The notes under the pieces: generated by a model
Seen by the model: the letters and a program-made list of their open reading frames with translations, nothing else
The model's database searches: none
Told to the model about the DNA's origin: nothing
NCBI GenBank assembly: GCA_018693105.1
Contig: JABHLN010000004.1
Location: 2,327-66,326 of the forward strand
From: Desulfobacterales bacterium
GTDB lineage: Bacteria > Desulfobacterota > Desulfobacteria > Desulfobacterales > SURF-7
Reading direction: 5' to 3'
DNA length: 64,000 nt
In this document: piece after piece, positions 4,772 through 61,135 of the stretch
Layout of the letters: each line of letters opens with the position of its first letter
Position numbering within the stretch: position 1 is the first letter of the stretch
Translations under genes and position numbers: made by a program

Positions 4772-4923
4772 TATGACTGGTAAGAAGTATAATCGATGGC
4801 TAAGTAACAATCTTTATATACAAGGCTCAGTGTTTGGCCAGACGTGAAGGCATACATGTAGTATGTCGAACGTTTGGCCAAACACTATAACGTAGTATAT
4901 GGAGACTTTTTACGACCCCATCA
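4772..4923 (-). mobile_element. Family A long-hairpin MITE-like element, full length, reverse orientation
   Basis: The reverse complement reads TGATGGGGTCGTAAAAAGTCTCCATATACTACGTTATAGTGTTTGGCCAAACGTTCGACATACTACATGTATGCC... Its terminal TGA (4921-4923) is the thiolase stop codon. Confidence 0.9.
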
Positions 4924-6162
4924 GGCTTTTAGTATTGTCACTGCAAGCGCAGCTTCCGTGTTGCTCACAGTTCCACCTGCATTTTCAGCAATTCCAATCT
5001 TTGCACCTTCTACCTGTCTTTCACCTGCAGCACCTGTAAGATGCATGTAAAGTTCAACTACCTGGCGCGCTCCTGTTGCTCCTATGGGATGTCCCTGGCA
5101 TTCAAGTCCTCCGGAAACGTTAACAGGTATTTTACCACCAAGTGTTGTATGACCTGCTTCGGTAAATGGTCCGCCTTCTCCTACCGGGCAGAGAAGAAGG
5201 TCTTCAATGGCAACGATTTCACCCAAAGCGGTTGCATCATGAACTTCGGCCAGATCAACATCTTCCGGGCCTATTCCGGCTCTTTCATATGCTTTTTTTG
5301 CAAGTTTGGTCATGGTGGGCTCTTCACCTTCTTTTCTCTCCTGACCACTTGCGACGCAACATGCTGATAACTCAACAGACTTGGATACTCCATTTTTTTT
5401 AGCAAAATCTTCAGAACAGATTATAACAGCAGCTGCACCGTCACCTATAGGAGAGCACATGAGGCGTGTCATAGGTCCTGAAACCACAGGAGATGCAAGC
5501 ACCTCATCAATAGTATAGCTATCCTGATATTGAGCTTTGGGGTTCATTGTTGAGTGGTAATGGTTTTTTGAAGCAACGGCGGCGAATTGTCTCTGTGTTG
5601 TTCCGTACTTTTCCATGTGCATCATTGCAGCAGATGCATATACATCCATGAATATTGTAGGCGTACCGGACTTCTGGGTGCTTGTAGCTTCCGATGTTTG
5701 GGTTTTTTCATGTTCCGCTTTCTGCTTTGCAAAGTTTTCAAGGAATAATTTTACCTCTTCTACATCCATGCAGCCTGTAAAAACGGGAAGTACTTTGCTT
5801 CGATCAGCAAAATACATTTTTTCCATACCGACAACCAGGGCAACATCCATTTCGCCAAGGGCAACCTGAGCCCAGGCTCCGTTTAATGCAAAAGCAGATG
5901 ATGAACATGCATTTTCAACATTTATTATAGGAATTCCGCCGATTCCCATGTTTCTCAAGACAGCCTGTCCGCGTATTGCATACTGTCCTTCAAGACAACC
6001 CTGGCCGACATTTCCCACCCATGCACCATTGAGATGTTCCTTAGTTATATCCGCATCATTTAATGCATCCGTTACAGCTTCTTTTACAAGGGATTTCAGG
6101 TTACGATCCATGTGCCGACCGAATTTTGTCATACCGCAACCGATTATTTTAACCTTACGCAT
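4921..6162 (-). CDS. thiolase-family protein (SCP-x / non-specific lipid-transfer-type acetyl-CoA C-acyltransferase)
   Basis: 413 aa. N-terminus is MRKVKIIGCGMTKFGRH, the active-site region is NACSSSAFAL, and the C-terminal region contains GGLECQGHPIGATG. AGGAGA RBS. Confidence 0.85.
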   Translation of the reverse strand: MRKVKIIGCGMTKFGRHMDRNLKSLVKEAVTDALNDADITKEHLNGAWVGNVGQGCLEGQYAIRGQAVLRNMGIGGIPIINVENACSSSAFALNGAWAQVALGEMDVALVVGMEKMYFADRSKVLPVFTGCMDVEEVKLFLENFAKQKAEHEKTQTSEATSTQKSGTPTIFMDVYASAAMMHMEKYGTTQRQFAAVASKNHYHSTMNPKAQYQDSYTIDEVLASPVVSGPMTRLMCSPIGDGAAAVIICSEDFAKKNGVSKSVELSACCVASGQERKEGEEPTMTKLAKKAYERAGIGPEDVDLAEVHDATALGEIVAIEDLLLCPVGEGGPFTEAGHTTLGGKIPVNVSGGLECQGHPIGATGARQVVELYMHLTGAAGERQVEGAKIGIAENAGGTVSNTEAALAVTILKA

Positions 6163-6192
6163 TATTTAATTTCTCCTTTGAGATGTTATTTT

Positions 6193-6335
6193 TGATGGCT
6201 TCGTAAAAAATATCCATCAACTGCGTTATAGTGTTTGGCCAGACGTTCGGCATACTATTTGTATGCCTTCACGCCCGGCCAAACATTATGCTTTACATAT
6301 TTAAGATGTTTACTTATAAAACATTTTTTATCTTA
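6193..6335 (+). mobile_element. Family A element, full-length left and core, degenerate right terminus
   Basis: TGATGGCTTCGTAAAAAATATCCATCAACTGCGTTATAGTGTTTGGCCAGACGTTCGGCATACTATTTGTATGCCTTCACGCCCGGCCAAACATTATGC... Similarity decays after TACTTA. It lies between two co-directional genes. Confidence 0.85.
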
Positions 6336-6343
6336 AATTTAAA

Positions 6344-8662
6344 CTATTCTTCAATTTCAGGTCCACTTCCACCTTCACGGAACCATGTTACAGGTCTGAA
6401 CTCACGGGGAACCATACCTTCCTGTTTGAATTTAGGATATCCAAGAACCATTGCATTACTGATTTTCCAGGGTTCACTTAAACCTAGTTTTTCTTTGATT
6501 TCCGGTGAGTTTTCCAATACCGCAATAAATCCCACCCAGCAGGATCCAAGACCGAGTGATTTTGCAACAAGTGTCATGTTTTGTCCACATATACCTATTT
6601 GTAAATCAGGCCCGGCTATTGACCTTGTATCAGCAGCCATTAAAATAATAGCCGGTGCATTCATTAATACCGGAAGATCACCGTTAGCTATACAGCCTAC
6701 ACCGCCTACTGCCACTCTCGGGTCCCAGTTTCCAACACTAGGATCAGCTTCATAGACAGGTATTAGTGCTTTTACAAGTGTATCGTTCGAATACGCAGCG
6801 TTTAACATGCCGACTTGAGCTACGGTTGCTTCCTGAAGTTCGTTAATAATCGATTTGTCTGTTATAGCGATAAATTTCCAAGGCTGGCAGTTCCCGGAAC
6901 TTGGTGCGAATCGCCCGGCTTCCATTACTCTTCTGATAAGAGGCTCGGGTACCGGATCATCTTTGTAGTTTCTTATACTTCTTCGTTCAAGAACAGTCTT
7001 TTCAATAATATTCCATTCTGCAGGATTCCCTTCTGCGTCTTTAGGTTCAAGAGGCATTTTAGCAGGGAGAGGATGGGGAGATGTTGCAAATGGTCCATCT
7101 GTAGCATGATAGGATGATACAATGGAAATCGCGTCAGTAGGACATGCTACCATGCAGTTATAGCAACTGAAGCATGCATAACCTTCTTTTAAAACAGGTG
7201 TTTTGTCTTCACTCTCTTCCCAGCATTTGAATGGGCAGTTCAGTATGCAAAGACCGCATTGGGTACATTTTTCGGCATCGCATTTCATAACTCCCATTTT
7301 TATACTATCACCAGGCCTGAAAACAGGTTCTACATCTTCCCATGTCATACCGCCCTCTACAGTAGCTGCAGGGGCAGCAGCCTGAACATTTTCAGCCTTT
7401 ATGTTCAGTATTCCACTGCCTTTTACCAGGTGTGTAGACCCTTCAATCATAAGTGATTCGTTTACACCATCTTCAATAAGACCTAATCTTGCATCGCGGA
7501 ATACCTGTTCGATGTGAAATTCTTTTGAAAGTCCGGGGCTGCCGAATATCTGAACAGCCTGACTTGCTACCCTGAATGCAACCTCTGTACAAAAAGTTTT
7601 TGCTGCAATACCATAATGTGTAGCTATCGGTCTTCCCTGCTTGATTTGCATACTATTATAAACAAGAACCCGACGGCCCAGGGAACGGGCAGCTTCTACT
7701 GAGGCAAACATGTCATAAAGTTTCAATTTGATGTTCTGATGTTCTATAATCGGTTTTCCACCCTGTACCCTGTTTTTTGCATAATCAAGGGCTTCTTCAA
7801 AAGCCGCCTGTGCTAAACCGGTAAAAAATATACCCACGCCGCCGTTAGCTGATCCAAGTTGTGTGTTTGAAAGTTGCCTAAACATTACTGGATCATCGGC
7901 TATCATCATGTATTTTGGAATACGAACATTGTCAAAATAGATTTCACCCTGATTCAATGATCTTTGTCCCATTTTAACAAGCGGTTTCCCTCTTGTAACA
8001 CCGGGAAGATCAAGAGGCATTACCACTATTCCTCCGCCTTGATTTCCCTTGGAAGGATCTAGTGAAACCCATATTACACCATGTGTTGCTATGGTTCCGT
8101 TGCTGACCCATGCGGCTTTCTGACCGTTAATAATATATGAATCTCCATCTGCAACTGCTGTAACTCCATATGCACATTTGGGATTTGTGGCGACTTCGCC
8201 TTCGAAAAATAATGAATCACCGCCATGGTCAGGCTCTGTTATACCCCAGCATCCGATCATTTTACCTTCTTTGTCGGCACAGAATTGTTTAACCAATTCC
8301 TGCATTTCCGGGGCAGGAGACATCATTGCATATAAATAGGGCTGGGAACTGGCAAGTATAGATGTTGAAAGACCAACATCGGCCCAGCCAAACTGTTCAA
8401 GGAGGATTGCCATTGTTAAAGGATCATCAATACCAAGACCTCCGAAATCTTCAGGGATGTTCATGATGGTATAATCCATTGCAATGGATTTTTTAAATGC
8501 ATCCCACAAAGGAGAATTATCAGCAATTACATCCTCCGGAGTGGCAAATTTGTCAAGCTCAACGCCAATAGGCCGTATTACTTCCGAGACAAATTTTCTG
8601 GTTTCTTTCCAGAAAGAAAAGTGTTCCTTGGTAAAATCAATGTTAAGTTCTCTTAATCCCAT
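6344..8662 (-). CDS. fusion protein: acyl-CoA dehydrogenase domain + 2x[4Fe-4S] ferredoxin domain + nitroreductase (FMN) domain
   Basis: 772 aa. Residues ~1-415 are ACAD-like (GCWGITEPDHGGD, IFGSPGLSKEFHIEQVFRDARL). The middle carries CTQCGLCILNCP and CFSCYNCMVACP. The C-terminus is nitroreductase-like (RRSIRNYKDDPVP, PSSGNCQPWKF). GGAGGG RBS. Confidence 0.85.
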   Translation of the reverse strand: MGLRELNIDFTKEHFSFWKETRKFVSEVIRPIGVELDKFATPEDVIADNSPLWDAFKKSIAMDYTIMNIPEDFGGLGIDDPLTMAILLEQFGWADVGLSTSILASSQPYLYAMMSPAPEMQELVKQFCADKEGKMIGCWGITEPDHGGDSLFFEGEVATNPKCAYGVTAVADGDSYIINGQKAAWVSNGTIATHGVIWVSLDPSKGNQGGGIVVMPLDLPGVTRGKPLVKMGQRSLNQGEIYFDNVRIPKYMMIADDPVMFRQLSNTQLGSANGGVGIFFTGLAQAAFEEALDYAKNRVQGGKPIIEHQNIKLKLYDMFASVEAARSLGRRVLVYNSMQIKQGRPIATHYGIAAKTFCTEVAFRVASQAVQIFGSPGLSKEFHIEQVFRDARLGLIEDGVNESLMIEGSTHLVKGSGILNIKAENVQAAAPAATVEGGMTWEDVEPVFRPGDSIKMGVMKCDAEKCTQCGLCILNCPFKCWEESEDKTPVLKEGYACFSCYNCMVACPTDAISIVSSYHATDGPFATSPHPLPAKMPLEPKDAEGNPAEWNIIEKTVLERRSIRNYKDDPVPEPLIRRVMEAGRFAPSSGNCQPWKFIAITDKSIINELQEATVAQVGMLNAAYSNDTLVKALIPVYEADPSVGNWDPRVAVGGVGCIANGDLPVLMNAPAIILMAADTRSIAGPDLQIGICGQNMTLVAKSLGLGSCWVGFIAVLENSPEIKEKLGLSEPWKISNAMVLGYPKFKQEGMVPREFRPVTWFREGGSGPEIEE

Positions 8663-8977
8663 TGTTACCCTCCTTGGAAATTTTTTTAGAAATCATAATG
8701 ATTAAAGTTATTAAACGGTAGTTTATGTGTGTTATATTAAATTTTGATGAATTATTATTTAATATTAAAGTTCACAATTTTATAAATTGGATCATTTTCT
8801 ATTAAGCCTATTTTAAATATTTATAATAAAAATAAATACCTTAAGCAGCTAACCGACTAACTGGATTGTTGACAGGTCAGCTGGTCGGTCATCAAGATTG
8901 ATAAGAAATCTTTATAAGAAAGTCAAGTCATTATTTTTATAAAAAACGGCTGATTATTATTATTGAATTGAGATTCG

Positions 8978-9123
8978 ATAGTGTTCATCCAGAAATGAGG
9001 ATTTTTGTTCAAGATCAAGACATGCGAAAAAAATAACCACAGGCTTATGTTTGATATTCCGAGGATTATTTTTTGAGCATAACGAAGATATTGGGAAGAA
9101 GACCATTTCAGGATGTGCACTAT
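8978..9123 (-). mobile_element. Family D/F element, copy F1
   Basis: Termini ATAGTGTTCATCCAGAAATG... and ...CATTTCAGGATGTGCACTAT are inverted. About 91% identical by hand count (10 mismatches over 117 bp) to the reverse complement of 10141-10256. Confidence 0.8.
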
Positions 9124-9273
9124 ATTAAGATGTTCTGATTTCACCTAATTTATATAAGAAAATATGAATAGTTGATTCAGAATTTGAGATGATTGTTTTT
9201 TACATGTTTCTATGCTAATTAGATAATAATAATATATCTTTTACAATAGAACGTATAAATATCAGAGCCTTTT

Positions 9274-9450: not shown

Positions 9451-9472
9451 CAGAGAATTAAGGAGTATTTGA

Positions 9473-10027: not shown

Positions 10028-10106
10028 CATTAACGGTTTTCATAAATATTTTCTTTCTTGAATATGATGAAAATATATTTTTATATGCTAATAGCAGGTG
10101 TTTAAT

Positions 10107-11558: not shown

Positions 11559-13028
11559 ATGTTGAGATTAAAGAATGTTGATTTTAATAAAGATAAGGTG
11601 AAAACTTTTGTTATCCCGGTTTGTGAAGACAAAGATATACATGACAACAGATTAGTTTCTTCTATTAAAAAAGAAATATCCGGAATAAAAGAGTTTAAAG
11701 GCAGAAAGGGCGATGAAGTTACACTATATAATATATCTGGAAAAAAAATTGAGAAAGTGATTTTTATAGGTATCGGGAAGGTTGAAACTATCGATGCGGA
11801 ATCTCTTCGTGCATTTGCAGGTAGTGTAGTAAAAAAGTGTATTCAAAAAGGTTTTGGAGAAGTAATGATTTCTGTACCTTCTGCAGGTAAAATAAAGATT
11901 GAACTACAATTAATGCTCAAATCTTTAATGGAGGGAGGATATCTGGGAAATCATATCTTTGATAAATATAAGAAAGACAAAAAAAACAAACCATTAAAAA
12001 GAATTGATTTTTTTGTAAAAGCCGATATTGCAAAAAAATTCAACAGACTTTCATCCCATGTGAAAAAAATCTGTGACAGTACAATCATTGCCCGTGAATG
12101 GGTAAACACCCCGTCAAATGACAAAAAACCGGTGGATTTCACAAAATCAATTGCCGCATTAGGGAAAAAGGCAGGGCTAAATATTACCGTTTTAGATGAG
12201 AAACAGCTGAAAATGAAAAAGTTTGGTTCTCTGCTTGCAGTTGCAGCCGGAAGTATAAATAAACCTCGAATGGTTATAATGGAATACAGTCCAAAAAAAC
12301 CCAGGAAGACAGTTGTTCTTGTAGGTAAAGGAGTAACGTTTGACTCAGGAGGTATAAACTTAAAAACATCCGAAGGTCTTAATAATATGAAAATGGATAT
12401 GGCTGGTGCTGCTGCGGTTGCCTCAACCCTTATAGCCGTTTCAAATATAAAACCTGACATAAAAGTTGTTGGAGTATTGCCTATTGTGGAAAATATGCCT
12501 TCAGGTTCTGCAATCCGACCCGGTGATGTTATTAAAAGTTTTGAAGGTAAAACTATTGAAATAGGAAATACAGATGCTGAAGGAAGGTTGATTCTTATCG
12601 ATGCAATGGCATATGCAATTAAGAAGTATAAACCAAATGTTCTTATTGATGTAGCAACTTTAACCGGAGCGTGCGTTGTTGCTCTGGGTGAAAAGATTGC
12701 CGGTGTATTCTCTTTTGATAATAAAATAGCTGATTCAATTGTTAAATCCGGTGAACGAACTTTCGAGAGATGCTGGCAAATGCCTATGCCGAAAGACTAT
12801 AAAGAATTTCTTAAAAGTGAAATTGCCGATATCAAGAATATCGGGAATTCACGATATGGTGGTGCCATTACAGCAGCCATGTTTTTGTCGGAGTTCACAG
12901 GTGATACAAAATGGGCACATATAGATATTGCAGGACCTGCATTTATTAACAAGGGGACTGCATATTGCGGGGCAGGAGGTTCCGGATTCGGGGTCCGCCT
13001 TTTATGTGATTATTTAGAAAATATATGA
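11559..13028 (+). CDS. pepA: leucyl aminopeptidase (M17)
   Basis: M17 signatures VGKGVTFDSGG and NTDAEGRL. I chose the ATG at 11559 (8 nt after AAGGAG) over 11553 (2 nt after). Confidence 0.9.
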   Translation: MLRLKNVDFNKDKVKTFVIPVCEDKDIHDNRLVSSIKKEISGIKEFKGRKGDEVTLYNISGKKIEKVIFIGIGKVETIDAESLRAFAGSVVKKCIQKGFGEVMISVPSAGKIKIELQLMLKSLMEGGYLGNHIFDKYKKDKKNKPLKRIDFFVKADIAKKFNRLSSHVKKICDSTIIAREWVNTPSNDKKPVDFTKSIAALGKKAGLNITVLDEKQLKMKKFGSLLAVAAGSINKPRMVIMEYSPKKPRKTVVLVGKGVTFDSGGINLKTSEGLNNMKMDMAGAAAVASTLIAVSNIKPDIKVVGVLPIVENMPSGSAIRPGDVIKSFEGKTIEIGNTDAEGRLILIDAMAYAIKKYKPNVLIDVATLTGACVVALGEKIAGVFSFDNKIADSIVKSGERTFERCWQMPMPKDYKEFLKSEIADIKNIGNSRYGGAITAAMFLSEFTGDTKWAHIDIAGPAFINKGTAYCGAGGSGFGVRLLCDYLENI

Positions 13029-13056
13029 AGATTTTTTACTTTATACGAGTTCATCA
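13022..13056 (+). repeat. Family A right-end fragment with internal deletion
   Basis: TATATGAAGATTTTTTACTTTATACGAGTTCATCA. The pepA stop TGA (13026-13028) lies inside the conserved TATATGAAG block. Confidence 0.7.
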
Positions 13057-16662: not shown

Positions 16663-16666
16663 ACCT

Positions 16667-16810
16667 TGATGGTGTCGTAAAAAGTCTCCATCTACTGCGT
16701 TATAGCGATTGGTCAGACACTCGACATACTGCATGTATGCCTTCACCCCTGATCAACCGTTATGCCTTGTATATGAAGATTTCTACTTAGTCATCGGTAC
16801 GAGTTCATCA
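16667..16810 (+). mobile_element. Family A element, full length
   Basis: TGATGGTGTCGTAAAAAGTCTCCATCTACTGCGTTATAGCG...GGTACGAGTTCATCA. Flanked by direct ACCT (16663-16666 and 16811-16814). Starts 4 nt after the cysS stop. Confidence 0.9.
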
Positions 16811-20703: not shown

Positions 20704-20725
20704 TTTCCCGTTTATTGATTAACAA

Positions 20726-20879
20726 TGATGGCGTCGTAAAAAGTCTCCATCTACTGCGTCGTAGCGGTTGATCAGAAGTTCGACATACTGCATGTATGCC
20801 TTCACTCCTGATCAACCGCTATGCCTTGTATATGAAGATTTCTACTTAGCCATCGTTAGTACTTTTTACGAGTTCATCA
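20726..20879 (+). mobile_element. Family A element, full length
   Basis: TGATGGCGTCGTAAAAAGTCTCCATCTACTGCGTCGTAGCGGTTGATCAG...CTGATCAACCGCTATGCC...ACTTTTTACGAGTTCATCA. Flanked by direct ACAA (20722-20725 and 20880-20883). Confidence 0.92.
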
Positions 20880-21079
20880 ACAATAATAGTTAACTGATTT
20901 GACAAAATGGCTAAAATATTGATTATAGTATAATAACTTGTGTTTTATAACGGTTTTGCAGTGCTTGTTTAGAGAAATGTATACTTTTTTGAGCATTACT
21001 GAGTATGTTTATGAAAAAGTCATGGCGAATAGTACTGATTGATAATAATAAAGAATTGTTATATATAAAACTTCAAATA

Positions 21080-36224: not shown

Positions 36225-36231
36225 AGATTGA

Positions 36232-36289
36232 TTCCTTGTATATGAAGATTCTTATTTACCCATCGGATATATTTTTTGCGACGCCATCA
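36232..36289 (+). repeat. Family A right-arm fragment ending in an inverted left-type terminus
   Basis: TTCCTTGTATATGAAGATTCTTATTTACCCATCGGATATATTTTTTGCGACGCCATCA. Confidence 0.75.
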
Positions 36290-38737: not shown

Positions 38738-38792
38738 AAATGTATATGAAGATTTTTACTTAGCCATCGGTTATATTTTTTACGAGTTCATC
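38738..38792 (+). repeat. Family A right half
   Basis: AATGTATATGAAGATTTTTACTTAGCCATCGGTTATATTTTTTACGAGTTCATCA. Confidence 0.8.
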
Positions 38793-40905: not shown

Positions 40906-40995
40906 TGATGGCTTCGTAAAAAGTATATCCAATGGCTAAATAAAAGTCTCCATACAAAATGTATGGTTTTATGGGAGATTTTTGTATATACAAAA
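40906..40995 (+). repeat. Rearranged family A derivative
   Basis: TGATGGCTTCGTAAAAAGTATATCCAATGGCTAAATAA is a left terminus joined to right-arm-like sequence. It is followed by the short hairpin GTCTCCATACAAAATGTATGGTTTTATGGGAGAT. Confidence 0.6.
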
Positions 40996-41146: not shown

Positions 41147-42268
41147 ATGATTAAAAAAATAAATAATAAAGAGTTTCTACAGGAGGAACTGGAACGTCGT
41201 ATTCTGCACGGGCTTTCATGTGAGTGGGGGTGGGCAGTTAATGTTTTAAGACCTGAACAAAGGCAAAAGATTCGGAAGCCTATGTTCAGTATCAAAGACA
41301 TGAAAGGGAAACTCGGCTACTGGTCTGCAGAAAATCGTGAGATCTGCATTAGTAGAAACCTTGTAATGAATCATCCCTGGGATGCTGTATGTGATGTATT
41401 AAAGCATGAAATAGGACATCAGTATGCAGAAGAGGTACTTGAAGTTAAAAATGAGACTTTCCACGGAAAGACCTTTTACGAAGCATGCCGAATTCTTCGT
41501 GCAAACCCTAAAGCTTCAGGAAAATACAGGCCGCTTCACAGGATGATAGCTCATGAGTTACCTGACCATGAAGATAAAATACTTCTTCGAATAAAAAAAC
41601 TAATGGCCCTTGCCGGTAGCAAAAATCAGCATGAAGCGGAATCTGCCATGGCAAAAGCCCATGACCTTATAACTAAATATAATATTGATCTTATTTCTAC
41701 TGAAAAAGACAGGGAATTTGTAAGTTTTTTTCTTGGCAGGCCTGCTCTTCGGCATTTTCGTGAGGAATATCATTTAGCTCACCTTTTGATAGATTATTAT
41801 TATGTTGAAGGTATCTGGGTGTCGGCTTATGTACTTGAGAAAGAAAAAATGGGACGTGTTCTGGAAATTACAGGAACACTTCAAAATGTTAAGATTGCAA
41901 ATTATGTGTATGATTATGTCAATAATTTTATCGATTTTAAATGGCGGGAATACAACCTTGATAAAGGCCTGAACCGCTACAGAAGGACTGATTTTGCTGT
42001 GGGAATAATCGAAGGTTTTATATCAAGAATGGATTCACAAAGAAAAAAAATGCGGATAAATGAAGGCGGAAATGAATTGATGAGTATTGAAGATTCAACG
42101 CTTATGGATTATATGTCATACAAATATCCCTATATTTCTAATGTCAAAGGCAGGGCATTGAGCCTTGATGAAAATGTTTTAAAAGACGGCAAAAAGATCG
42201 GCAGGAAAATGATATTATCAAAAGGGATTTCAGCTAAAGGGAAGAAAAAGGGGCTTTTGATAGAATAA
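41147..42268 (+). CDS. SprT-like zinc metalloprotease domain + DUF2786-like domain protein
   Basis: HEIGHQY (HExxH) followed by FHGKTF is SprT-like. ILLRIKKLMALAGSKNQHEAESAMAKAHDLITKYNI matches the DUF2786 pattern. 373 aa. Confidence 0.6.
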   Translation: MIKKINNKEFLQEELERRILHGLSCEWGWAVNVLRPEQRQKIRKPMFSIKDMKGKLGYWSAENREICISRNLVMNHPWDAVCDVLKHEIGHQYAEEVLEVKNETFHGKTFYEACRILRANPKASGKYRPLHRMIAHELPDHEDKILLRIKKLMALAGSKNQHEAESAMAKAHDLITKYNIDLISTEKDREFVSFFLGRPALRHFREEYHLAHLLIDYYYVEGIWVSAYVLEKEKMGRVLEITGTLQNVKIANYVYDYVNNFIDFKWREYNLDKGLNRYRRTDFAVGIIEGFISRMDSQRKKMRINEGGNELMSIEDSTLMDYMSYKYPYISNVKGRALSLDENVLKDGKKIGRKMILSKGISAKGKKKGLLIE

Positions 42269-42302: not shown

Positions 42303-42653
42303 ATGAGTATTCTTAAGAACATCGTAAAAAAAGGTAAAAATGCAACGCTATCAATAGGTCTCGAGAGTGTTTTTAAAAATATAGTAAAAGAATATGCTGA
42401 TTTATTGTATTTCAAATTTGATTCCAGTAAAAGTTTTCTTGAGTTTGACCTCATGTTAAAAGATGAACTTTCATCACTTAAAGTAAGAATAGAAAATTTT
42501 AATATTTTAAAAAAGAATAATCATCACTATATTATTATTCCAGAACTGACTACTTCAAGGGAATGGATTAATACTATAGCCAAAGAGTATATTGTTGATA
42601 AGGAAATATTATTACCTGATGAATATGCAACATTTTATGAAATGATAACGTGA
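42303..42653 (+). CDS. hypothetical protein
   Basis: 116 aa ORF, 34 nt downstream of the SprT-like gene, with no recognisable family. Its stop TGA is the first three bases of the next family A element. Confidence 0.45.
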   Translation: MSILKNIVKKGKNATLSIGLESVFKNIVKEYADLLYFKFDSSKSFLEFDLMLKDELSSLKVRIENFNILKKNNHHYIIIPELTTSREWINTIAKEYIVDKEILLPDEYATFYEMIT

Positions 42654-42806
42654 TGGCGTCGTAAAAAGTCTCCATCTATTGCGTTATAGTTGTTTATCAG
42701 AAGTTCGACATACTACATGTATACCTTCACTCCTGATAAACAATTATGCCTTGTATATGAAGATTTTTGCTTAGCCATCGGTTATAATTTTTTACAAGCT
42801 CATAAT
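42651..42806 (+). mobile_element. Family A element, full length (right terminus slightly degenerate)
   Basis: TGATGGCGTCGTAAAAAGTCTCCATCTATTGCGTTATAGTTGTTTATCAG...CTGATAAACAATTATGCC...TTTTTTACAAGCTCATAA. Confidence 0.9.
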
Positions 42807-49107: not shown

Positions 49108-49242
49108 TGATGAACTTGTAAAAAATCAACTTGGGATGGCAAAGCAAAAAGTTCAAGATCAAGGCGCCGCAAATCCCGAGGAATGAAGCGTACTAATTGT
49201 ACGCTGTAGTGACGAGGGGTGTAGCGCAACGTAGATATTGAC
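49108..49242 (-). mobile_element. Family B element (left terminus replaced by the adjoining family A copy)
   Basis: TGATGAACTTGTAAAAAATCAACTTGGGATGGCAAAGCAAAAAGTTCAAG...AGCGTACTAATTGTACGCT...GTAGCGCAACGTAGATATTGAC. The reverse complement aligns with 51092-51221. Confidence 0.8.
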
Positions 49243-49384
49243 TCGTAAAAAAAACCGATGGATAAGTAGAAATCTTCATATACAAGGCATAGAGTTTGGT
49301 TCGGTGTGAAGGCATACGTGTAGTATGTCGAATACCTGGCCAAACTCTATAACGCATTAATGGAGACATTCTACGACGCCATCA
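49238..49384 (-). mobile_element. Family A element, full length, reverse orientation, abutting family B
   Basis: ...ACTCGTAAAAAAAACCGATGGATAAGTAGAAATCTTCATATACAAGGCATAGAGTTTGG...CCAAACTCTATAACGCATTAATGGAGACATTCTACGACGCCATCA. The terminal TCA (49382-49384) is the stop codon of the SPOR gene. Confidence 0.88.
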
Positions 49385-50881
49385 ACGTTTGACAACTTCA
49401 GGATTGAAAGACAACCCCCGGAGTCTTTTTATTTGTTCGGAAGTCTCTTTTTCCGAACTGAATGCTCCGGCAAGAAATCGAAGTCTTTTTTCGGAATTTT
49501 TAAGCGGTATTATGTATGGGATAAAACCTTTATGTATTAACTTTGAGTTGATATCTTTCATGTTATGCTCTTTATCAAAAACCCCTATCTGAATTGTATA
49601 AGGCATTTTAACTGTGATTGCATCTTTAAACATTCTATTATTAAGTTTATTCATCTCTTTTTTTGCTTCAGTATATGATCCGTAAAAACCGATGAAAACA
49701 CGATAAAAAACTCCTGTTTCCGGGATACGTGCCGGAGATGTGAAAGCAGGTTCTCCGGCACTTCTCAACTGGGTTGTCAGACGCTGTGATGTCTTTATAT
49801 CTTTTAAAGAACATACCTGGATAGTATAGGGGTAATAGCCGCTTTTATCAGGCTTATTTCCTGTTTTATTGTATAGCGTAGTTACTTCTTTTTCAGCTTT
49901 GTGAATAATTTTTTTGTACTTTTTTCTTTTAATAATTTTTTTCGCTACAAGTTCATTATGCCATGGCCTGCCTGTATTATAATGCTCCAGGTGGGCTTTG
50001 TATTCTGAAAGGTTGTCGCTTTCATTCTCATTGTTTAGAAATTTAATAGCTTTTTTCTGAATAAGTTTTGCCGCTGTAAAATCACCGGCTTCTGCATATG
50101 CTGCAGCCAGCACATCAAGAGATTCTGCATTCTTAATAAAACCGTACCCTTTTCTTGCCATCAATACAGCTTTTTTGCCATTTCTATGGCGGGAGTCAGG
50201 ACAGCTTGACAGTATTTTTGACAACTCAAAATATGCTTCAGCTGATAAGGGGTTAATTTCAATTGCTTTTTCAAAATCGGAGATTGCAGGATCATAATTG
50301 CCTTTTGCGTTAAAAATCAATCCCCGGTTGAAATGTACTTCCGAAAACCTCTGAATAATATCATTATATCCTGAAACATTTTTTTCAGAAATTTTTGAGT
50401 AGACAGGGTTTGATTCAATATCTTTTGTATAATCTGCTATTGCTCTGCCGTAGTTTCCTTTAGCAGCCCAGGATGCTGCACGGTTGTAATATGCCTCACT
50501 GTAATTAGGATTGATTTCTATGGCTTTTGTATAATCTGCTATTGCATTGTCGGTGTTGCCTTTGGCCGCCCATGCAACACCTCGATTGCAGTATGCATCG
50601 GCAAAACCAGGGCTAATCGTTATGGCCCGAGTGTAATCCTTTATAGCTTCATCATATTTACTTATATAGAAAAATGCTATTCCCCGGTTACTGATGGCCA
50701 CGAAATCATGTGGAATTGTTTCAATTGTTGTAGAAAAAGCTTTAATAGCATCTTCGTAACTCCCGGAGTTTAAATACTTAATCCCAAGTTCAAAACTGTC
50801 TTCAAAACAGTAGGATGTTCGTGGATGCAAAAGAAGTACAGATATCGTCAATAATAATATGAGTGTTATAAATTTTTTCAT
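49382..50881 (-). CDS. TPR-repeat + SPOR-domain (peptidoglycan-binding) protein
   Basis: Signal/anchor MKKFITLILLLTISVLLL, multiple TPR repeats (AYCNRGVAWAAKGNTDNAIADYTKAIEINP...), and two SPOR-like repeats at the C-terminus (YTIQVCSLKD..YRVFIGFYGSYTEAKK; YTIQIGVF). Start moved to M16. Confidence 0.8.
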   Translation of the reverse strand: MKKFITLILLLTISVLLLHPRTSYCFEDSFELGIKYLNSGSYEDAIKAFSTTIETIPHDFVAISNRGIAFFYISKYDEAIKDYTRAITISPGFADAYCNRGVAWAAKGNTDNAIADYTKAIEINPNYSEAYYNRAASWAAKGNYGRAIADYTKDIESNPVYSKISEKNVSGYNDIIQRFSEVHFNRGLIFNAKGNYDPAISDFEKAIEINPLSAEAYFELSKILSSCPDSRHRNGKKAVLMARKGYGFIKNAESLDVLAAAYAEAGDFTAAKLIQKKAIKFLNNENESDNLSEYKAHLEHYNTGRPWHNELVAKKIIKRKKYKKIIHKAEKEVTTLYNKTGNKPDKSGYYPYTIQVCSLKDIKTSQRLTTQLRSAGEPAFTSPARIPETGVFYRVFIGFYGSYTEAKKEMNKLNNRMFKDAITVKMPYTIQIGVFDKEHNMKDINSKLIHKGFIPYIIPLKNSEKRLRFLAGAFSSEKETSEQIKRLRGLSFNPEVVKR

Positions 50882-50958
50882 TTCCGCAAGGTGATCTTTT
50901 AAAGAATTTTCATATAAACTCGACATAACATTAATTAAGCTTTTGTATCGATATCATA

Positions 50959-51028
50959 ATATGTAGTATGTCGAGTGTCCGGCCAAACGCTCTAACACAG
51001 TATATGGAGACTTTTTACGACGCCATCA
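50959..51028 (-). repeat. Family A left half (apex to left terminus)
   Basis: ATATGTAGTATGTCGAGTGTCCGGCCAAACGCTCTAACACAGTATATGGAGACTTTTTACGACGCCATCA. Bracketed by a 28-bp direct repeat (50931-50958 and 51030-51057). Confidence 0.8.
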
Positions 51029-51091
51029 ATTAATTAAGTTTATGTATCGATATCATATAGTCATATTCATCTTCAATTCTTTTATTAAATT

Positions 51092-51221
51092 TGATGGCTT
51101 CGTAAAAAGTCTAATATCTGCGTTGCGCTACATGCCTCGTCACTGCGGCGTACGATAAGTACTCCTCATTCCTTGAACTTTTTATTTTGCCATCCAAAGT
51201 TCACTTTTTACGGGTTCATCA
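51092..51221 (+). mobile_element. Family B element, full length
   Basis: TGATGGCTTCGTAAAAAGTCTAATATCTGCGTTGCGCTACATGCCTCGTCACTGCGGCGTACGATAAGTAC...TTGCCATCCAAAGTTCACTTTTTACGGGTTCATCA. Flanked by direct AATT (51088-51091 and 51222-51225). Confidence 0.88.
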
Positions 51222-51225
51222 AATT

Positions 51226-51250
51226 TGATGGTGTCGTAAATCCCGCTTAA
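51226..51250 (+). repeat. Solo left terminus joined to an ATCCCGCT unit
   Basis: TGATGGTGTCGTAAATCCCGCTTAAGC. The unit AATCCCGCTATAGG recurs at 52408 and 54702. Confidence 0.6.
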
Positions 51251-51957: not shown

Positions 51958-52190
51958 TGCAGTCTGTTGATATTTCAATTACAATTATGAATTTCTGCTA
52001 TGCTTTTTTTGGAGCAGTATTGACGATACTTTTTATGATTGTCGGATATAAAATATTTGACAAAATGACTCCGTTCAATACTTCAGAACAGCTTGAGAAT
52101 AAAAATATCGCTGTAGGTATTGTGGTTGGATCGATTTTTATCGGGCTGGGGATTGCCATAGGGATGGTTATTGGTATGGGCCTTAATTAA
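51954..52190 (+). CDS. DUF350-like small membrane protein
   Basis: 78 aa with two TM segments and NIAVGIVVGSIFIGLGIAIG. 4-nt overlap with the SLT gene. Confidence 0.6.
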   Translation: MMQSVDISITIMNFCYAFFGAVLTILFMIVGYKIFDKMTPFNTSEQLENKNIAVGIVVGSIFIGLGIAIGMVIGMGLN

Positions 52191-52336
52191 GATGGCGTCG
52201 TTAAAAGTCTCCATCTACTGCGTTATAGCGTTTTGCCAGACGTTCGACATACTACTTGTATGCCTTCACGCCTGGCAAAAAACCATGCCTTGTATATGAA
52301 GATTTTAACTTAGCCATCAGGTATGATTACGTAGTT
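52191..52336 (+). mobile_element. Family A element, full length (first base of terminus missing)
   Basis: GATGGCGTCGTTAAAAGTCTCCATCTACTGCGTTATAGCGTTTTGCCAG...CTGGCAAAAAACCATGCC...CCATCAGGTATGATTACGTAGTT. It starts directly after the TAA of the DUF350 gene. Confidence 0.88.
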
Positions 52337-54665: not shown

Positions 54666-54720
54666 TGATGAACTCGTAAAAAGTATAACCGATGGCTAAG
54701 TAATCCCGCTATAGGAGTAC
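54666..54720 (-). repeat. Family A right-terminus module (inverted) plus AATCCCGCTATAGG unit
   Basis: TGATGAACTCGTAAAAAGTATAACCGATGGCTAAGTAATCCCGCTATAGGAGTAC. Confidence 0.75.
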
Positions 54721-54783
54721 TACCGGGTTATATTAACCCAAAAAACCATGATTAACTCTTTACGTGTTAATTATAATGAATGG

Positions 54784-54813
54784 TGATGAACTCGTATAAA
54801 GTATAACTGATGG
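54784..54813 (-). repeat. Second, directly repeated right-terminus module
   Basis: TGATGAACTCGTATAAAGTATAACTGATGG repeats 54666-54695. The ATG of the 54810 ORF lies in its GATGG block. Confidence 0.75.
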
Positions 54814-55907
54814 AGAATAATATTTTGCATAGATTGCTTACATCAATAATTTTATGTCTGTTTCTCTGGAATAGCAGCCTTGCCGATACAGCCGGGAATC
54901 AAGACATTGATTCTTATAATAAATCTCATAATAATAAATCTCATAATAATAAATCAGAAAAGATCGAATACCATTTAAACAAGCTTAAAGAGGAAATGCC
55001 CCGACTTGACCTTTCAAAAAAGCCGGTCAATTCGGAATCTGCAATAAAGTATTTTGAGTATTACGGTTTGAATTTTAAAAATACACTTCATTATTTCGGG
55101 TCGTTTAATTCAAAACAAAAGATTATCGCAGGTCATGTTTTCCTGCCTGATAACCCGGCAGGGACTGTGTTATTATTACATGGCTATTTAGACCATTCGG
55201 GTATTTTAAAAAACCTGATAAGTAATTGTCTGGAGTCCGGTTATGCTGTTGCAGTTTTTGATCTTCCCGGGCACGGGCTTTCTTCGGGAGAAATGGCGTC
55301 GGTTGATGATTTCAGCGAATATATTTCAGCTCTTGATGACTTTTTAAAAAAATACTATTCAGTTCTTCCGGAGCCTTTGAATCTTATCGGTCACAGTACC
55401 GGATGTTCTGTTGCATTTGATTATTTAAGTAAATTTAAGGACAAGGAAATTTCAAAGGTGATTTTTCTGTCTCCTCTTGTTCATACTGCTTATTGGGAAA
55501 CTTTTAAAACCGGTTATTATTTCTTTGGTATTTTCTTTAAAAAATTTAAAAGGTATTTCAGGAATAACTCAAGAGATACAGAATATATTGAGTTTATAAA
55601 AAATGATCCGCTCCAGGCCAGGGAGATTCCGGTGAAATGGCTGAAAGCTTTATATTTATGGAATAAAAGAGTGGAAAAGTATGATGTTTTATCAAAAAGG
55701 GTTCTGATAATTCAGGGTGATGATGATGCCACGGTTGACTGGAAATATAATATTGAATTTTTCAGAAAAAAAGTTAAACCGTTGGAAGTAAAAATGATAA
55801 AAAATGCCCGTCATCAATTAATCAATGAAATAGTCCCGGAGCGATCTATTGTTTTTGATATTATAAATGATGAACTTGAAAAGAGTTTAAACGAAGGAAT
55901 AAAATGA
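54810..55907 (+). CDS. alpha/beta hydrolase (lysophospholipase / monoacylglycerol-lipase-like), secreted or lipid-anchored
   Basis: Signal-like N-terminus, HGYLDHSG oxyanion region, GHSTG nucleophile elbow and a late DD..V/H. Contains an (NKSHN) tandem repeat. Confidence 0.75.
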   Translation: MENNILHRLLTSIILCLFLWNSSLADTAGNQDIDSYNKSHNNKSHNNKSEKIEYHLNKLKEEMPRLDLSKKPVNSESAIKYFEYYGLNFKNTLHYFGSFNSKQKIIAGHVFLPDNPAGTVLLLHGYLDHSGILKNLISNCLESGYAVAVFDLPGHGLSSGEMASVDDFSEYISALDDFLKKYYSVLPEPLNLIGHSTGCSVAFDYLSKFKDKEISKVIFLSPLVHTAYWETFKTGYYFFGIFFKKFKRYFRNNSRDTEYIEFIKNDPLQAREIPVKWLKALYLWNKRVEKYDVLSKRVLIIQGDDDATVDWKYNIEFFRKKVKPLEVKMIKNARHQLINEIVPERSIVFDIINDELEKSLNEGIK

Positions 55908-57574: not shown

Positions 57575-57618
57575 CTTTTGTCGTCTATGTGAAAGTTAAA
57601 AAGTGAAAGTTAAAAAAT

Positions 57619-58794
57619 ATGGTTTCAAAAGAAAATCATGAAAAAACTGCCGGGATATATGTTCATATCCCGTTTTGCTTGAGGAAATGCCCTTATTGTG
57701 ACTTTTACTCAATTACCGATATTTCCCTTGAACAGTTATTCTTTGATTCCGTTTACCGTGAGATCGTAATGAGAAGTAATACCTCCTTTTTATTTGATAC
57801 GATTTATATCGGAGGCGGTACCCCTTCTGTTGTCGCACCTGAAAATATTGGAAGGCTTATTGAAAAGCTTCACCATTATTATAAGATATCCCCGGAAGCG
57901 CAAATAACAATAGAAGTAAATCCGGGATTAGTTGATTTTAAACTCTTATCTAAATATCTATCGTATGGCATAAACCGTTTGAGCATTGGAATACAGTCGT
58001 TCGGTGATGAAAATCTGACTTTTCTCGGAAGGATTCATTCTGCATCGGAAGGAATAAAGTCTATAACCGACGCTAAAGAAGCCGGCTTTAATAATATCTC
58101 CCTTGACCTGATTTACGGTATCCCTGGACAGACGATGGAGGACTGGCTTTTGGATTTGTCACAGGCTGTTGCTTTTAAGCCCGAACATATATCCTGTTAT
58201 ATGCTTACTTATGAAAAAGATACACCTATGGAAAAAAGAATGCGGGAAGGTGAATTTCAGCCGTTGCCGGAAGAATTGGCAGGTAATTATTTTTCTGCAG
58301 CAAACGATTTTCTTAATTCAAACGGTTATAGCCAGTATGAAATATCAAATTTTGCGAGAACCGGTTCTGATGATTTAAGATCTCTTAAATCGAGACATAA
58401 CTTTAAATACTGGTCATTTTCCCCATATATCGGGTTTGGTCCTTCAGCCCATTCTTTTTCCGGGGATGAGAGAAGCTGGAATCATGGAAATGTTTTGAAA
58501 TATGCTGAAGATATAAAAAGCGATATACTCCCTGTTGCTGATACTGAAGTTTTAAACAGGGAACAGAAGATTCTCGAAGCGGTTTATCTTGGTCTAAGGA
58601 AAACCGAAGGCATAGACCTCAAGGAATTTAAGAACAAATTTGGTGTCAGTTTCAGGGAGATGTTTATTAATATACTCCCGGAGCTTATTGAAAATAAACA
58701 TTTAGAGGTTAGCAAGAATCGTTGCGCTCTGACTAGTAAAGGAATGCTTTTTCATGATAGTATAGTTTCGATGCTTGTGGATGAGGACATTTGA
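57619..58794 (+). CDS. hemW: radical SAM heme chaperone HemW (HemN-like)
   Basis: YVHIPFCLRKCPYCDF (CxxxCxxC), GGGTPS, RHNFKYW. The stop TGA is the first three bases of the next family A element. Confidence 0.85.
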   Translation: MVSKENHEKTAGIYVHIPFCLRKCPYCDFYSITDISLEQLFFDSVYREIVMRSNTSFLFDTIYIGGGTPSVVAPENIGRLIEKLHHYYKISPEAQITIEVNPGLVDFKLLSKYLSYGINRLSIGIQSFGDENLTFLGRIHSASEGIKSITDAKEAGFNNISLDLIYGIPGQTMEDWLLDLSQAVAFKPEHISCYMLTYEKDTPMEKRMREGEFQPLPEELAGNYFSAANDFLNSNGYSQYEISNFARTGSDDLRSLKSRHNFKYWSFSPYIGFGPSAHSFSGDERSWNHGNVLKYAEDIKSDILPVADTEVLNREQKILEAVYLGLRKTEGIDLKEFKNKFGVSFREMFINILPELIENKHLEVSKNRCALTSKGMLFHDSIVSMLVDEDI

Positions 58795-58944
58795 TGGCGT
58801 CGTCAAAATCTCCATCTACTGCGTTATAGTTTTTGGCCAGACGTTCGACATACTACATGTATGCCTTCACGCCTGGCCAAACATTATGCCTTGTATATAA
58901 AGATTTTGACTTAGCCATGTGCTATACTTTTGATGAGTTCATCA
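58792..58944 (+). mobile_element. Family A element, full length
   Basis: TGATGGCGTCGTCAAAATCTCCATCTACTGCGTTATAGTTTTTGGCCAG...CTGGCCAAACATTATGCC...TTTTGATGAGTTCATCA. Confidence 0.9.
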
Positions 58945-59002
58945 AAATTTGTGTTTGACTGAGAAATAGGGCAAAAAAGGATGTTATGCAAAGGTGATAA
59001 CA

Positions 59003-59032
59003 CAGCAGATGGAGATTTTAACGACGCCATCA
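59003..59032 (-). repeat. Solo family A left-terminus fragment, inverted
   Basis: CAGCAGATGGAGATTTTAACGACGCCATCA is the reverse complement of TGATGGCGTCGTTAAAATCTCCATCTGCTG. It lies 4 nt from the selB stop. Confidence 0.75.
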
Positions 59033-59036
59033 CACA

Positions 59037-60944
59037 TCATACTCTGAGCTTTCTGACATCTCCTATCCGTAGCGTAATTTTCTGTGAATCGAAATATTCT
59101 ATCAGGGGGATTGTGTATTTTCGTGAAACACCTGTTATTTCTTTGAGCTGAGGGGTTGTGACCTCACCGTTTTTATTTATAAACTCTACAAGCCGCTTCT
59201 TAAGATTATCTATTGCGCTGGTATGAAAATACAGATCATCTTTTGCCTTTATAATATCCCCTTTTTTTACAAGTAATAGAAGAACATCACCTGCAGCAGA
59301 TACATCTACATCAAGTTCTGAACATAATGCCTTGAAATAAGGAGGTTTAAGATCTGATTTAAGATAAACATCCATAATCTTTTTTCTTATATCTTCCTGG
59401 TCAACCTGGAGGGCTATTTTATAGCCTTCGAGACGTACTGTATCTTCCTCGGTAATAACCTCTTTGTTTTTGATCATTTGATTCAGAAGCAGGTTGAAAA
59501 GTTTTGTGCCTGTTGAAGGGCGGAACTTTGATTTTAGTTCTTCTTTAGGCATTCCGGTCTTTAGGGGGTTGGATTTATGATATTTGGTAAGAAAGTCTAT
59601 TGTTGCTTTCGAAAGCCTGTCCAAAGTTTTTAAATGGATGAAAATTCGCTTCTCCTTGTTCACTTGAATAAGAGTCCTGCTTGATAAAAGGCTTGATAAT
59701 ACGGACTGGAGCTGCTTTTCAGGAAGATTTGCCATGATTTTCAAATCAGAAAACGATACTCCTGTATTACCTGCCTGATCAACATGGTATGAGATGATTT
59801 CATCATTATTACTTTCAACAAGACTTTTAAGTCCATCAGTTACATCTTTGTCAAAAAGTCTATGTTTTTTCGGAACAGGATTAAGTATCTGCCCACCACC
59901 GATTGTTTTTACAGGTGAGTAACTTCTTAAAACGAACCTATCATCCTTGACACATGTCATAGTTGAATCAAGTCTTATCTGCGCCTCAATAGTTTCACCC
60001 GGATGAAGTTCTTCCCTGTCAAGGAGTACCAGTGTGCCCATATTTTCGCGAGTGCCGATGTGAAACCTGAGCTGTGTCCGGTTTTTCAGGGCCTTGGTAT
60101 TGCTTTTCAGGTAGTGTACCGAAATATCCAGCATATAACTTTGTTTCAATGTATCCGGAAGAGCCAATACATCTCCGCGGTTTACCGAAGCCCTCTCAAG
60201 CCCCTGAAAATTTATAGCAGTCCTCATTCCTGATTCTGCTTCATTAACAGATTCGCCGTGGACCTGTAAGCCTCTCACCTTGGATGTAATAAGGTTTGGA
60301 TAGACCATTATCATATCACCCACACTGATTTTACCTGACATGATAGTTCCGGTTATAACAGTACCAAAACCTTTCATTGTAAACACACGATCAACAGGAA
60401 GTCGGAAAAGACTTGACCGGGGACGTTCGGGGACATCAGCGCTTAACTCATCAAGGGTATTGACTAAATCCTTGATCCCTTGTCCTGTTGTTGATGATAC
60501 ATGTACAACAGGTGAATCTTCCAGAAAGGACCCCTGAACGAATTCCCTGACATCTTCAGTTACAAGTTCCATCCATTCTTCATCCACAAGATCAATTTTT
60601 GTAAGAACAACTATGCCGTGTTTTATACCCAGGAGTGTGCATATTTCCATATGCTCTCTTGTCTGGGGCATAACTCCTTCATCGGCTGCAACAATCAATG
60701 CTACGATGTCAATACCGGTAGCACCGGCAACCATGTTCTTTACAAATTTTTCATGTCCTGGAACGTCAACAATTCCGATATGTTGACCGCTGGGGAGTTT
60801 TATGGAGGCAAAGCCCAATTCGATGGTTATACCCCGAAGCTTTTCTTCCTTTAGCCGGTCGGTATCAATACCTGTCATTGCTTTGATAAGGCTTGTCTTT
60901 CCGTGATCAATGTGTCCTGCGGTGCCGAGTATTAGTTGTTTCAA
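59037..60944 (-). CDS. selB: selenocysteine-specific translation elongation factor
   Basis: [27 protein letters not shown] and a long C-terminal winged-helix region. I place the start at TTG 60944 ([11 protein letters not shown]) after GGGAG. The track's extra 14 codons (METFYDAIKHGSWF) begin inside the repeat (its first 25 nt). Confidence 0.88.
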
Positions 60945-60961
60945 AAACCAGCTCCCATGTT

Positions 60962-61115
60962 TGATGGCGTCGTAGAAAGTCTCCATATACTGCGTTATAG
61001 CGGTTAATCAGAAGCTCGACATACTACCTGTATGCCTTCACTCCTGATCAACAGCTATGCCTTGTTTATGAAGATTTCTACTTAGCCATCGGTTATACTT
61101 TATACAAGTTCATCA
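60962..61115 (+). mobile_element. Family A element, full length
   Basis: TGATGGCGTCGTAGAAAGTCTCCATATACTGCGTTATAGCGGTTAATCAG...CTGATCAACAGCTATGCC...CTTTATACAAGTTCATCA. Near-duplication in the flanks (TGTT / TATT). Confidence 0.9.
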
Positions 61116-61119
61116 TATT

Positions 61120-61135
61120 TGATGAACCCGTAAAA
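61120..61135 (-). repeat. Solo right-type terminus, back to back with the preceding copy
   Basis: TGATGAACCCGTAAAA, 4 nt after ...GTTCATCA. Confidence 0.6.

Follow-up and report, generated by a model that had tools for sequence, protein, structure and literature searches.

A probable MITE superfamily in Desulfobacterota, in which the hairpin persists while the arm sequences turn over

The DNA analysed here is a stretch of 64,000 nucleotides from a Desulfobacterales bacterium (assembly GCA_018693105.1, contig JABHLN010000004.1, positions 2,327 to 66,326), called the window in what follows; all coordinates are window positions unless a locus is named. It carries nine full copies and about ten fragments of a repeat that we call family A. 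Family A is very probably a MITE (miniature inverted-repeat transposable element), that is a non-autonomous DNA transposon, and a branch of a MITE superfamily of about 150 bp in Desulfobacterota. Within it the arm sequences turn over completely and the hairpin architecture persists. The assignment is based on the fact that the repeat is small and non-coding, has terminal inverted repeats (TIRs), is flanked by a target duplication of fixed length and occurs in many dispersed copies. A previous description of these repeats, made from the letters of the window (the sequence-only reading), did not recognise a MITE because the target-site duplications had not been seen.

Boundaries, terminal repeats and target-site duplication

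The nine full copies of the sequence-only reading were recovered with the positions and strands given there. The 26-nt left end gave nine matches with at most three mismatches in the window, where none was expected, and an nhmmer profile of the nine copies found all of them again with E-values from 1e-37 to 1e-48. The end motif matched 25 times in the window against 0.85 expected. The element itself runs from GATGG to CATC; the first T and the last A of the consensus proposed earlier belong to the duplicated target, because the hexamers of loci L009 (TTGAAA) and L047 (TTGGTT) lack the T end or the A start.

The element measures 147-156 bp, and the mode of the sizes over 137 end pairs is 150-153 bp. 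Its TIRs are 17 bp long (GATGRNNYCGYAAAAAG ... CTTTTTRCGRNNYCATC), the left end reading GATGGCGTCGTAAAAAG and the reverse complement of the right end GATGAACTCGTAAAAAG. A third copy of the repeat, inverted, is subterminal and lies 6-8 bp inside the right end (TTTTTAC-TTA-GCCATC). There is no coding capacity: stop codons occur in all three frames at most 14 codons from the left end, and the open reading frames (ORFs) that overlap copies in the window are spurious extensions only.

When copies from the window and from genome loci were aligned side by side, an identical hexamer was found directly left of GATGG and right of CATC. Counted over window, genome and metagenome loci, this 6-bp target-site duplication is perfect in 52 of the 137 pairs and matches at five of six positions in 16 more, while a control in which one hexamer was shifted by 6 nt gave no perfect match and a single five-of-six match among 274 comparisons. 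Among the genome loci listed, 21 of 35 copies are flanked by a perfect repeat of at least 6 bp. The target logo is AT-rich and roughly palindromic, YY-AWNNTT-RR (here and below, hyphens mark the boundaries of the hexamer). The best match of both the nhmmer profile and the covariance model is taken as the reference copy:

20727..20878, plus strand: reference full family A copy of 152 bp, GATGG...TTCATC
20721..20726: target-site duplication AACAAT, left copy (same hexamer at 20879-20884)
20879..20884: target-site duplication AACAAT, right copy (same hexamer at 20721-20726)

Identical ends enclose unrelated interiors, and some minimal elements of 39-54 bp are made of the ends only, as is expected if one transposase mobilises anything that bears its binding sites. 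Families A and B, the latter also present in the window, form a continuum, branches of one superfamily of about 150 bp with the same ends and the same architecture; the arms and the apical hairpin of family B (GCGTAC..GTACGC) differ from those of family A, and in metagenomes family B grades into family A. The proposal is that a DDE-type transposase, supplied in trans, would bind the terminal and subterminal repeats, cut the target with a 6-bp stagger and insert the element.

Some arrangements of the ends were observed besides. The minimal elements at L014:135-188, L015:4942-4980 and L050:4912-4958 consist of left end, internal site and right end only. They too are flanked by 6-bp duplications (AACGTT, AATCAG), a hint that at least some insertions do not strictly depend on the interior hairpin. 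Elements placed head to tail with one common hexamer between them are frequent (50961-51240; 61116-61140; L050:5709-5988; L009:6346-6356), an example being CATC-AAATTT-GATGG at 51221-51231; this would be expected if an occupied site, where GA comes after AWNNTT, served well as a target in its turn. At L036:747-923 the right terminal repeat is tandemly duplicated, and the matching hexamer AGAGAT stands after the second repeat.

Hairpin architecture

In fold predictions every copy forms one long imperfect hairpin, as the sequence-only reading had proposed. The minimum free energy of the copy at 20726 as RNA is -57.3 kcal/mol on the plus strand (z -7.4) and -67.1 on the minus strand (z -9.9), and -27.6 as DNA (z -5.4). 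At the base the left end pairs with the internal GCCATC site, which closes the hairpin, and the terminal right repeat remains outside it as a tail. From the base upwards the stem consists of the closing helix GATGGC/GCCATC, an A5/T5 helix, the outer stem, an internal loop, the inner stem and the apical hairpin. The parts of the reference copy, all on the plus strand, are:

20727..20743: left TIR, GATGGCGTCGTAAAAAG
20744..20754: outer stem, left strand TCTCCATCTAC, pairing with 20828-20838
20755..20760: internal loop, left side TGCGTC (consensus CTGCGTT), facing GCCTT at 20823-20827
20761..20775: inner stem, left arm GTAGCGGTTGATCAG, hypervariable
20776..20807: apical region with the small hairpin CATAC-N5-GTATG
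20808..20822: inner stem, right arm CTGATCAACCGCTAT
20828..20838: outer stem, right strand GTATATGAAGA
20839..20854: internal subterminal third repeat, inverted, TTTCTACTTAGCCATC, which closes the hairpin with the left end; its GCCATC is invariant in the alignments
20862..20878: right TIR, CTTTTTACGAGTTCATC

The six-by-six internal loop, CTGCGTT/GCCTTG (columns 30-35 and 100-105 of alignment A1), is conserved on both sides and non-complementary in the alignments of all subfamilies; its middle holds one invariant G-C and one T.G. The loop could be a protein-binding site.

Compensatory changes in the stem

The sequence-only reading had also claimed that the two inner arms differ between copies and remain complementary within each copy, and the window bears this out. 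Of 19 possible Watson-Crick pairs in the inner stem, a copy has 15.3 on average, but combining the left arm of one window copy with the right arm of a different one yields only 12.4 (permutation p = 0.0001). The diversity (pi) of the inner arms in the window is 0.27-0.29, about three times that of the ends, the outer stem and the apical region (0.08-0.12).

A covariation check, as the same reading had suggested, gave double changes far above shuffles and slid controls in two sets. The first set comprises 53 copies of family A, drawn from genome loci and the window and compared on the structure of one copy; 19 of 34 pairs show double changes. They amount to 166 double-change cells, against 67 in column shuffles, none of 500 of which reached the observed value, and 11-38 when the partner was slid by 1-3 columns. 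The invariance of the apical core in the genome set is a sampling artefact, because the genome loci had been selected with that core.

Since an alignment of families A and B by sequence only fails to align the stems, a covariance model was made from 24 family A hairpins, and the window and 99 metagenome loci were aligned with it, giving 72 unique best-strand elements. In this alignment, which is fitted to the structure and hence leans towards pairing, 86% of the cells are paired against 72.7% in shuffles, double changes occur in 40 of 45 pairs against 24.6, and 490 cells carry a double change, where shuffling gives 175 and sliding 53-133. In several pairs three or four pair types are frequent (for example CG 26, GC 20, TA 16). 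The apical pair covaries between the families both in the sequence-only alignment (GC 13 versus AU 10) and among the 72 elements (GC 36 versus AT 30), and members of the other subfamilies, folded independently, adopt the same architecture.

It had further been claimed that such a pattern is not that of passively decaying repeats. This is correct for the comparison between lineages, where compensation is seen, and not for resident copies, which do decay. Among the private changes of the young subfamily of MAG (metagenome-assembled genome) CSMAG_2380, represented by 18 copies, 17 break a pair, seven make a wobble, four create a pair and only two are compensated; the copies in the window have 1 to 7 mismatches per 19 inner pairs. 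From the one-sided decay of young copies it follows that compensation comes about from one spreading lineage to another, rather than within resident copies. This argues for a filter on which variants spread or are tolerated at arrival, and against per-copy purifying selection and frequent arm correction in place. With lower confidence, we infer that lineages able to fold spread or survive better.

RNA-guided targeting by means of the variable arms was considered and rejected. The longest common substring between arms and flanks measures 5.65 when the flanks are those of the copy itself and 5.84 when they belong to other copies, and arms that do not match their flanks are not guides for the choice of target.

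Distribution

The superfamily is not limited to the window but is widely distributed among Desulfobacterota that reduce sulfate and metals. A scan with the apical core, over one genome per species, gave at least 52 genome loci; nearly all of those listed come from MAGs with 38-61% GC that belong to Desulfuromonadales, Desulfuromusa, Syntrophotalea and Desulfobacteraceae, and many lie at contig ends. A scan with a right-end pattern gave at least 118 metagenome loci, sediment metagenomes included, and since the pattern specifies the right end only, this second scan is unbiased for the interior. Flanks differ among the genome and metagenome loci, which are unrelated, intergenic insertion sites in many genomes not related to one another. 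Part of MAG GCA_018648885.1 has exactly the sequence of the window; the next relatives by HemW are Desulfobacterales and "Deltaproteobacteria" MAGs with only 57% identity.

Contigs begin or end inside the element at L004, L008, L017, L020, L021, L022, L024, L027, L033, L034, L037 and L043. Assemblies of these MAGs are often broken by the element, which accounts for many of their contigs breaking at one sequence of about 150 bp. One full copy of the GC-rich subfamily lies at 1449-1600 of locus L038, on a 1.76-Mb contig (JBFWJC010000001.1) labelled as a Pedobacter sp. MAG, where the locus has 55.6% GC; it could be explained by mislabelling, by a binning error or by transfer outside the Desulfobacterota.

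Insertion at stop codons and relation to genes

At 13 of 62 left ends an ORF ends exactly in a TGA composed of the last T of the target and the GA of the element, against one of 44 right ends. The ORFs were required to have at least 100 codons, or at least 60 if running off the end of the locus, and one of the counted cases has 94. In the window such stop junctions are found at 42651-42653 and 58792-58794, and on the minus strand at 4921-4923 and 49382-49384. Since the last base of the target hexamer is usually T and the element opens with GA, an element that inserts at a stop codon recreates a TGA in frame. An intact duplication still has the former stop past its right copy; at L025, CTT-TAA became CTT-TGA. 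A transposon can thus sit flush against a gene at no cost to the protein.

The stop junctions follow in part from the target preference, because a T followed by two purines resembles a stop codon. From the logo, a rough ratio of about 2.3:1 between left and right junctions is expected, and 13:1 was observed; the orientation bias is only marginally beyond expectation. Copies are found in tandem, convergent and divergent spacers. On both strands the A5/T5 tracts look like those of a bidirectional intrinsic terminator, but they belong to the transposon repeats, and the stem is far longer than that of a usual terminator; a role as bidirectional intrinsic terminator is a hypothesis.

The element also disturbs gene calls. 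The longest selB ORF, 59037..60986, has its ATG within the left end of the 60962 copy. Among public calls of this gene, two start at 60944 (635 aa) and one at 60986 (649 aa). Genes may in this way be given a false extension at their start, and annotators should distrust start and stop codons within the first bases of the element.

Weighing the explanations

The sequence-only reading had advised a search for a transposase gene whose ends match TGATGGCGTCGTAAAAAG. The direction was right, because these ends are the terminal repeats of a transposon, but no such gene was found in the loci searched. The ORFs of the window are housekeeping genes, with no transposase, RAYT or recombinase gene among them. 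None of the inverted end pairs 0.2-6 kb apart with matching duplication in the loci examined encloses a transposase. No transposase adjoins the solo ends, whose neighbouring ORFs are housekeeping genes, and every ORF of at least 220 codons seen at more than one locus is a housekeeping gene as well. In all, no transposase was seen anywhere near more than 200 copies. In IMG/VR a loose end pattern gave chance single matches only, with no paired ends. A possible candidate for the parent is the ISDol1 group of ISNCY, known first from Desulfococcus oleovorans and producing direct repeats of 6-7 bp, which would fit the length of the duplication as well as the range of hosts. No ISDol1-type transposase was seen near any copy; the group itself is described (PMC8147514).

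Several observations count against a transposon moved in trans whose fold is kept for a function. Neither the window nor the 10 kb beyond each of its ends contain a transposase or an autonomous partner, and a search of about 0.3 Mb of genome loci and 0.7 Mb of metagenome loci gave no element of insertion-sequence (IS) size with these ends at its borders. For an autonomous partner outside chromosomes, the ends were not found in the plasmids of PLSDB, and the specific two-site end pattern gave no match in IMG/VR. An empty site for comparison is missing, as all assemblies of the same population carry the insert and the nearest relatives of the window genome are only 57% identical in HemW. The overall orientation to neighbouring genes is 30 versus 18, divergent intergenic regions are not avoided, and a simple terminator/promoter scan calls none of the copies. 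Finally, in 56 of 66 copies the more stable RNA fold is that of the minus strand, but the asymmetry at the level of mismatches is inconsistent across families: C.A oppositions exceed G.T in family A only, and the excess is absent or reversed in family B, so that the presumed RNA is assigned to neither strand.

As to what keeps the fold, the explanation that we favour, tentatively, is that the folded transcript (A-tract, hairpin, U-tract) acts as a putative terminator, insulator or stable 3' end, which would make insertion behind genes harmless. Somewhat less probable is that transposition itself needs the folded single strand. It is also conceivable, if doubtful, that the hairpin is an obligatory, sequence-free cis-element of the life cycle, and that selection on the fold, not on the sequence, drives the compensatory turnover. 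Such an obligatory hairpin might take two forms. In one, the transposase would act on the folded single strand, with the left end and the internal GCCATC as substrate; in the other, the element would be a module that spreads by itself, acts as a terminator or insulator in both directions and restores the stop codon at its landing site.

The compensation could also come about without any selective cause, through mutational arm-to-arm correction in a quasi-palindrome, an established mutational mechanism. By intrastrand template switching at replication, or by mismatch repair of a transient fold-back, one event would copy a change across to the other arm; this is compatible with a MITE, and we consider it unlikely, though nearly as probable as a need of transposition for the folded single strand. 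It fits with double changes of transversion type that have no wobble intermediate (GC/CG at 23/112 and UA/GC at 45/88, 46/87 and 50/83 in the 53-copy set; CG/GC/TA at 61/278 among the 72 elements) and with the lack of a G.U strand signature consistent across families. However, the mostly one-sided private changes of the young CSMAG_2380 copies and the mismatches in the window copies make correction in place rare at best; indiscriminate correction should have erased the internal loop, which is non-complementary in all subfamilies; and the length and architecture of the element are constant despite the turnover of sequence.

A structured RNA as the primary identity, either a family of non-coding RNA genes or a cis-acting 3' untranslated region or terminator to which the ends and repeats would be secondary, appears improbable. 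The strong covariation, the very stable folds (z -7 to -10) and the A5 and U5 tracts that flank the hairpin on both strands speak for it, as does the position of the copies, with a gene 3' end on the left side in 34 of 52 and 13 genes stopping in the first bases of the element. Yet there is no Rfam family and no conserved promoter was seen; copies are in both orientations and occupy every intergenic type; fragments and nested and tandem copies are common, and resident copies decay. The 6-bp duplications and the common ends on unrelated inserts indicate that the multiplying unit is a transposon. The likeness to REP/RAYT recognition that had been remarked on previously, and with it a REP/REPIN element mobilised by a RAYT (Y1 transposase) or a palindrome derived from IS200/IS605, has to be dropped almost entirely. 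What it has in its favour is a palindromic extragenic unit and the CTAC/GTAG motif, which, as reported, occurs three times per unit in the subfamily of the window; in the GC-rich subfamily two of the three are absent (ACTATATG, TTTTTGCTTAG), and in other subfamilies the motif is not conserved. The TIRs and the 6-bp duplication are decisive here, since single-strand transposition by a Y1 enzyme makes no such duplication, and neither the window nor its 10-kb extensions contain a Y1_Tnp, RAYT, IS200 or TnpB gene.

Comparison with described repeats

The check for an already described family, which the sequence-only reading had recommended, left the element without a match in Rfam and in the searchable literature. 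At the gathering threshold of Rfam 15 only the two tRNAs of the window are found, and a relaxed search gives only matches to miRNA-like hairpins, with 13-19 bits against thresholds of 38-100. The searchable literature does not contain the sequence strings of the element, nor do the supplements on "multicopy nucleotide sequence" that accompany the genome papers on Pelobacter carbinolicus and Geobacter bemidjiensis.

Bacterial MITEs are non-coding elements of 100-250 bp, multicopy and intergenic, with TIRs and a target duplication; sometimes they overlap gene ends, and they form long RNA hairpins (PMC10969869; PMC3184786). Correia/NEMIS of Neisseria, RUP, ERIC and Nezha are like family A in size, TIRs, duplication, intergenic multicopy occurrence and hairpin fold. 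Family A differs from them in the sequence of its ends, its 6-bp duplication, its third, subterminal repeat and its Desulfobacterota hosts. Correia duplicates TA. Chunjie, a MITE of Geobacter uraniireducens Rf4 with a length of 178-235 bp, 21-bp TIRs and 9-bp direct repeats (PMC3184786), resembles family A as an AT-rich Desulfuromonadales MITE with very stable RNA folds and some overlap with genes (PMC3184786, PMC10969869). Identity with Chunjie was rejected by description, family A having about 150 bp, 17-bp TIRs and a 6-bp duplication.

The closest precedent for the compensatory changes is bcr1 of the Bacillus cereus group, mobile repeats of about 155 bp with 5-bp direct repeats that are transcribed and in which compensatory changes keep a double-stranded RNA, the stability of the structure having been lost repeatedly in some copies (PMC3184786). 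It is unlike family A in its 5-bp repeats, its unrelated sequence, its unrelated host phylum and the transcription reported for it. REP/REPIN sequences are extragenic palindromes with a GTAG/CTAC-like motif, which family A has in one subfamily only; REPs measure 20-40 bp, lack TIRs and target duplications and come with a RAYT gene, whereas family A has about 150 bp and both. A palindromic element derived from IS200/IS605, which would have subterminal hairpins, no TIR or duplication and insertion 3' of a fixed tetra- or pentanucleotide, was rejected because TIRs and a 6-bp duplication are present.

Family A is therefore a new family, indeed a superfamily, of a known type, for which compensation in MITE-like repeats has a precedent in bcr1, and current concepts are unchanged by it. 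What it offers is an abundant and apparently undescribed MITE superfamily for the Desulfobacterota, where few are characterised. Its points of interest are a structure kept without the sequence, an insertion that restores the stop codon and a partner that is absent from the searched loci. With fixed ends and variable arms, in hundreds of copies and in hosts of 38-61% GC, it is also a clean natural data set for asking whether the hairpin of a MITE is kept by selection or by palindrome correction.

Copies, fragments and genes in the window

Besides the reference copy, the window holds the following full copies, fragments and relatives:

4772..4923, minus strand: family A copy with degenerate right end; the thiolase-like gene 4921..6162 (minus strand) stops in its T-GA
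6193..6335, plus strand: family A copy without right end
16667..16810, plus strand: family A copy between cysS and uvrB, shortened by a small deletion close to its right end and flanked by AACCTT, duplicated perfectly (element from 16668)
42651..42806, plus strand: family A copy; ORF 42303..42653 stops in its T-GA
49238..49384, minus strand: family A copy adjoining a family B copy; the TPR/SPOR gene 49382..50926 (minus strand) stops in its T-GA
52190..52336, plus strand: family A copy with degenerate right end
58792..58944, plus strand: family A copy; the hemW-like gene 57619..58794 stops in its T-GA
60962..61115, plus strand: family A copy between selB and tRNA-His, with flanking hexamers ATGTTT and ATATTT (5/6 match)
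50961..51028, minus strand: family A left half (profile search)
58994..59032, minus strand: family A left-end fragment (profile search)
38741..38792, plus strand: solo right end, internal site and terminal repeat
36228..36287, plus strand: solo right-end fragment
40908..40967, minus strand: solo right-end fragment
54667..54703, minus strand: solo right-end fragment, with a second at about 54785-54821
about 13020-13055: further partial copy
4227..4279, plus strand: solo right end of family B type
51093..51220, plus strand: copy of the sister family B, bounded by the same terminal repeats and flanked by AAATTT, duplicated perfectly; the next left end follows immediately, at 51227
49109..49240, minus strand: family B copy without its first 19 nt or so, joined to the family A copy 49238-49384
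2384..2499, plus strand: divergent hairpin relative, found by the covariance model only (40.6 bits, E 1e-8)

Another element starts at 61122, just past the copy 60962..61115. The genes around the copies are those of an ordinary chromosome: cysS, uvrB, uvrC, hemW, selB, the genes for tRNA-His and tRNA-Arg, and those for glycolysis and acyl-CoA enzymes. Amid these housekeeping genes, and just upstream of the ORF that ends in the 42651 copy, lies ORF 41147-42268 with SprT-like, DUF2786 and DUF7168 domains. The hairpin at 2371-2520 has a family-B-like interior with the T5 and A5 tracts swapped and an extra outer inverted repeat (GAGACCTTTG...CAAAGGTCTC), and it may represent another related family.

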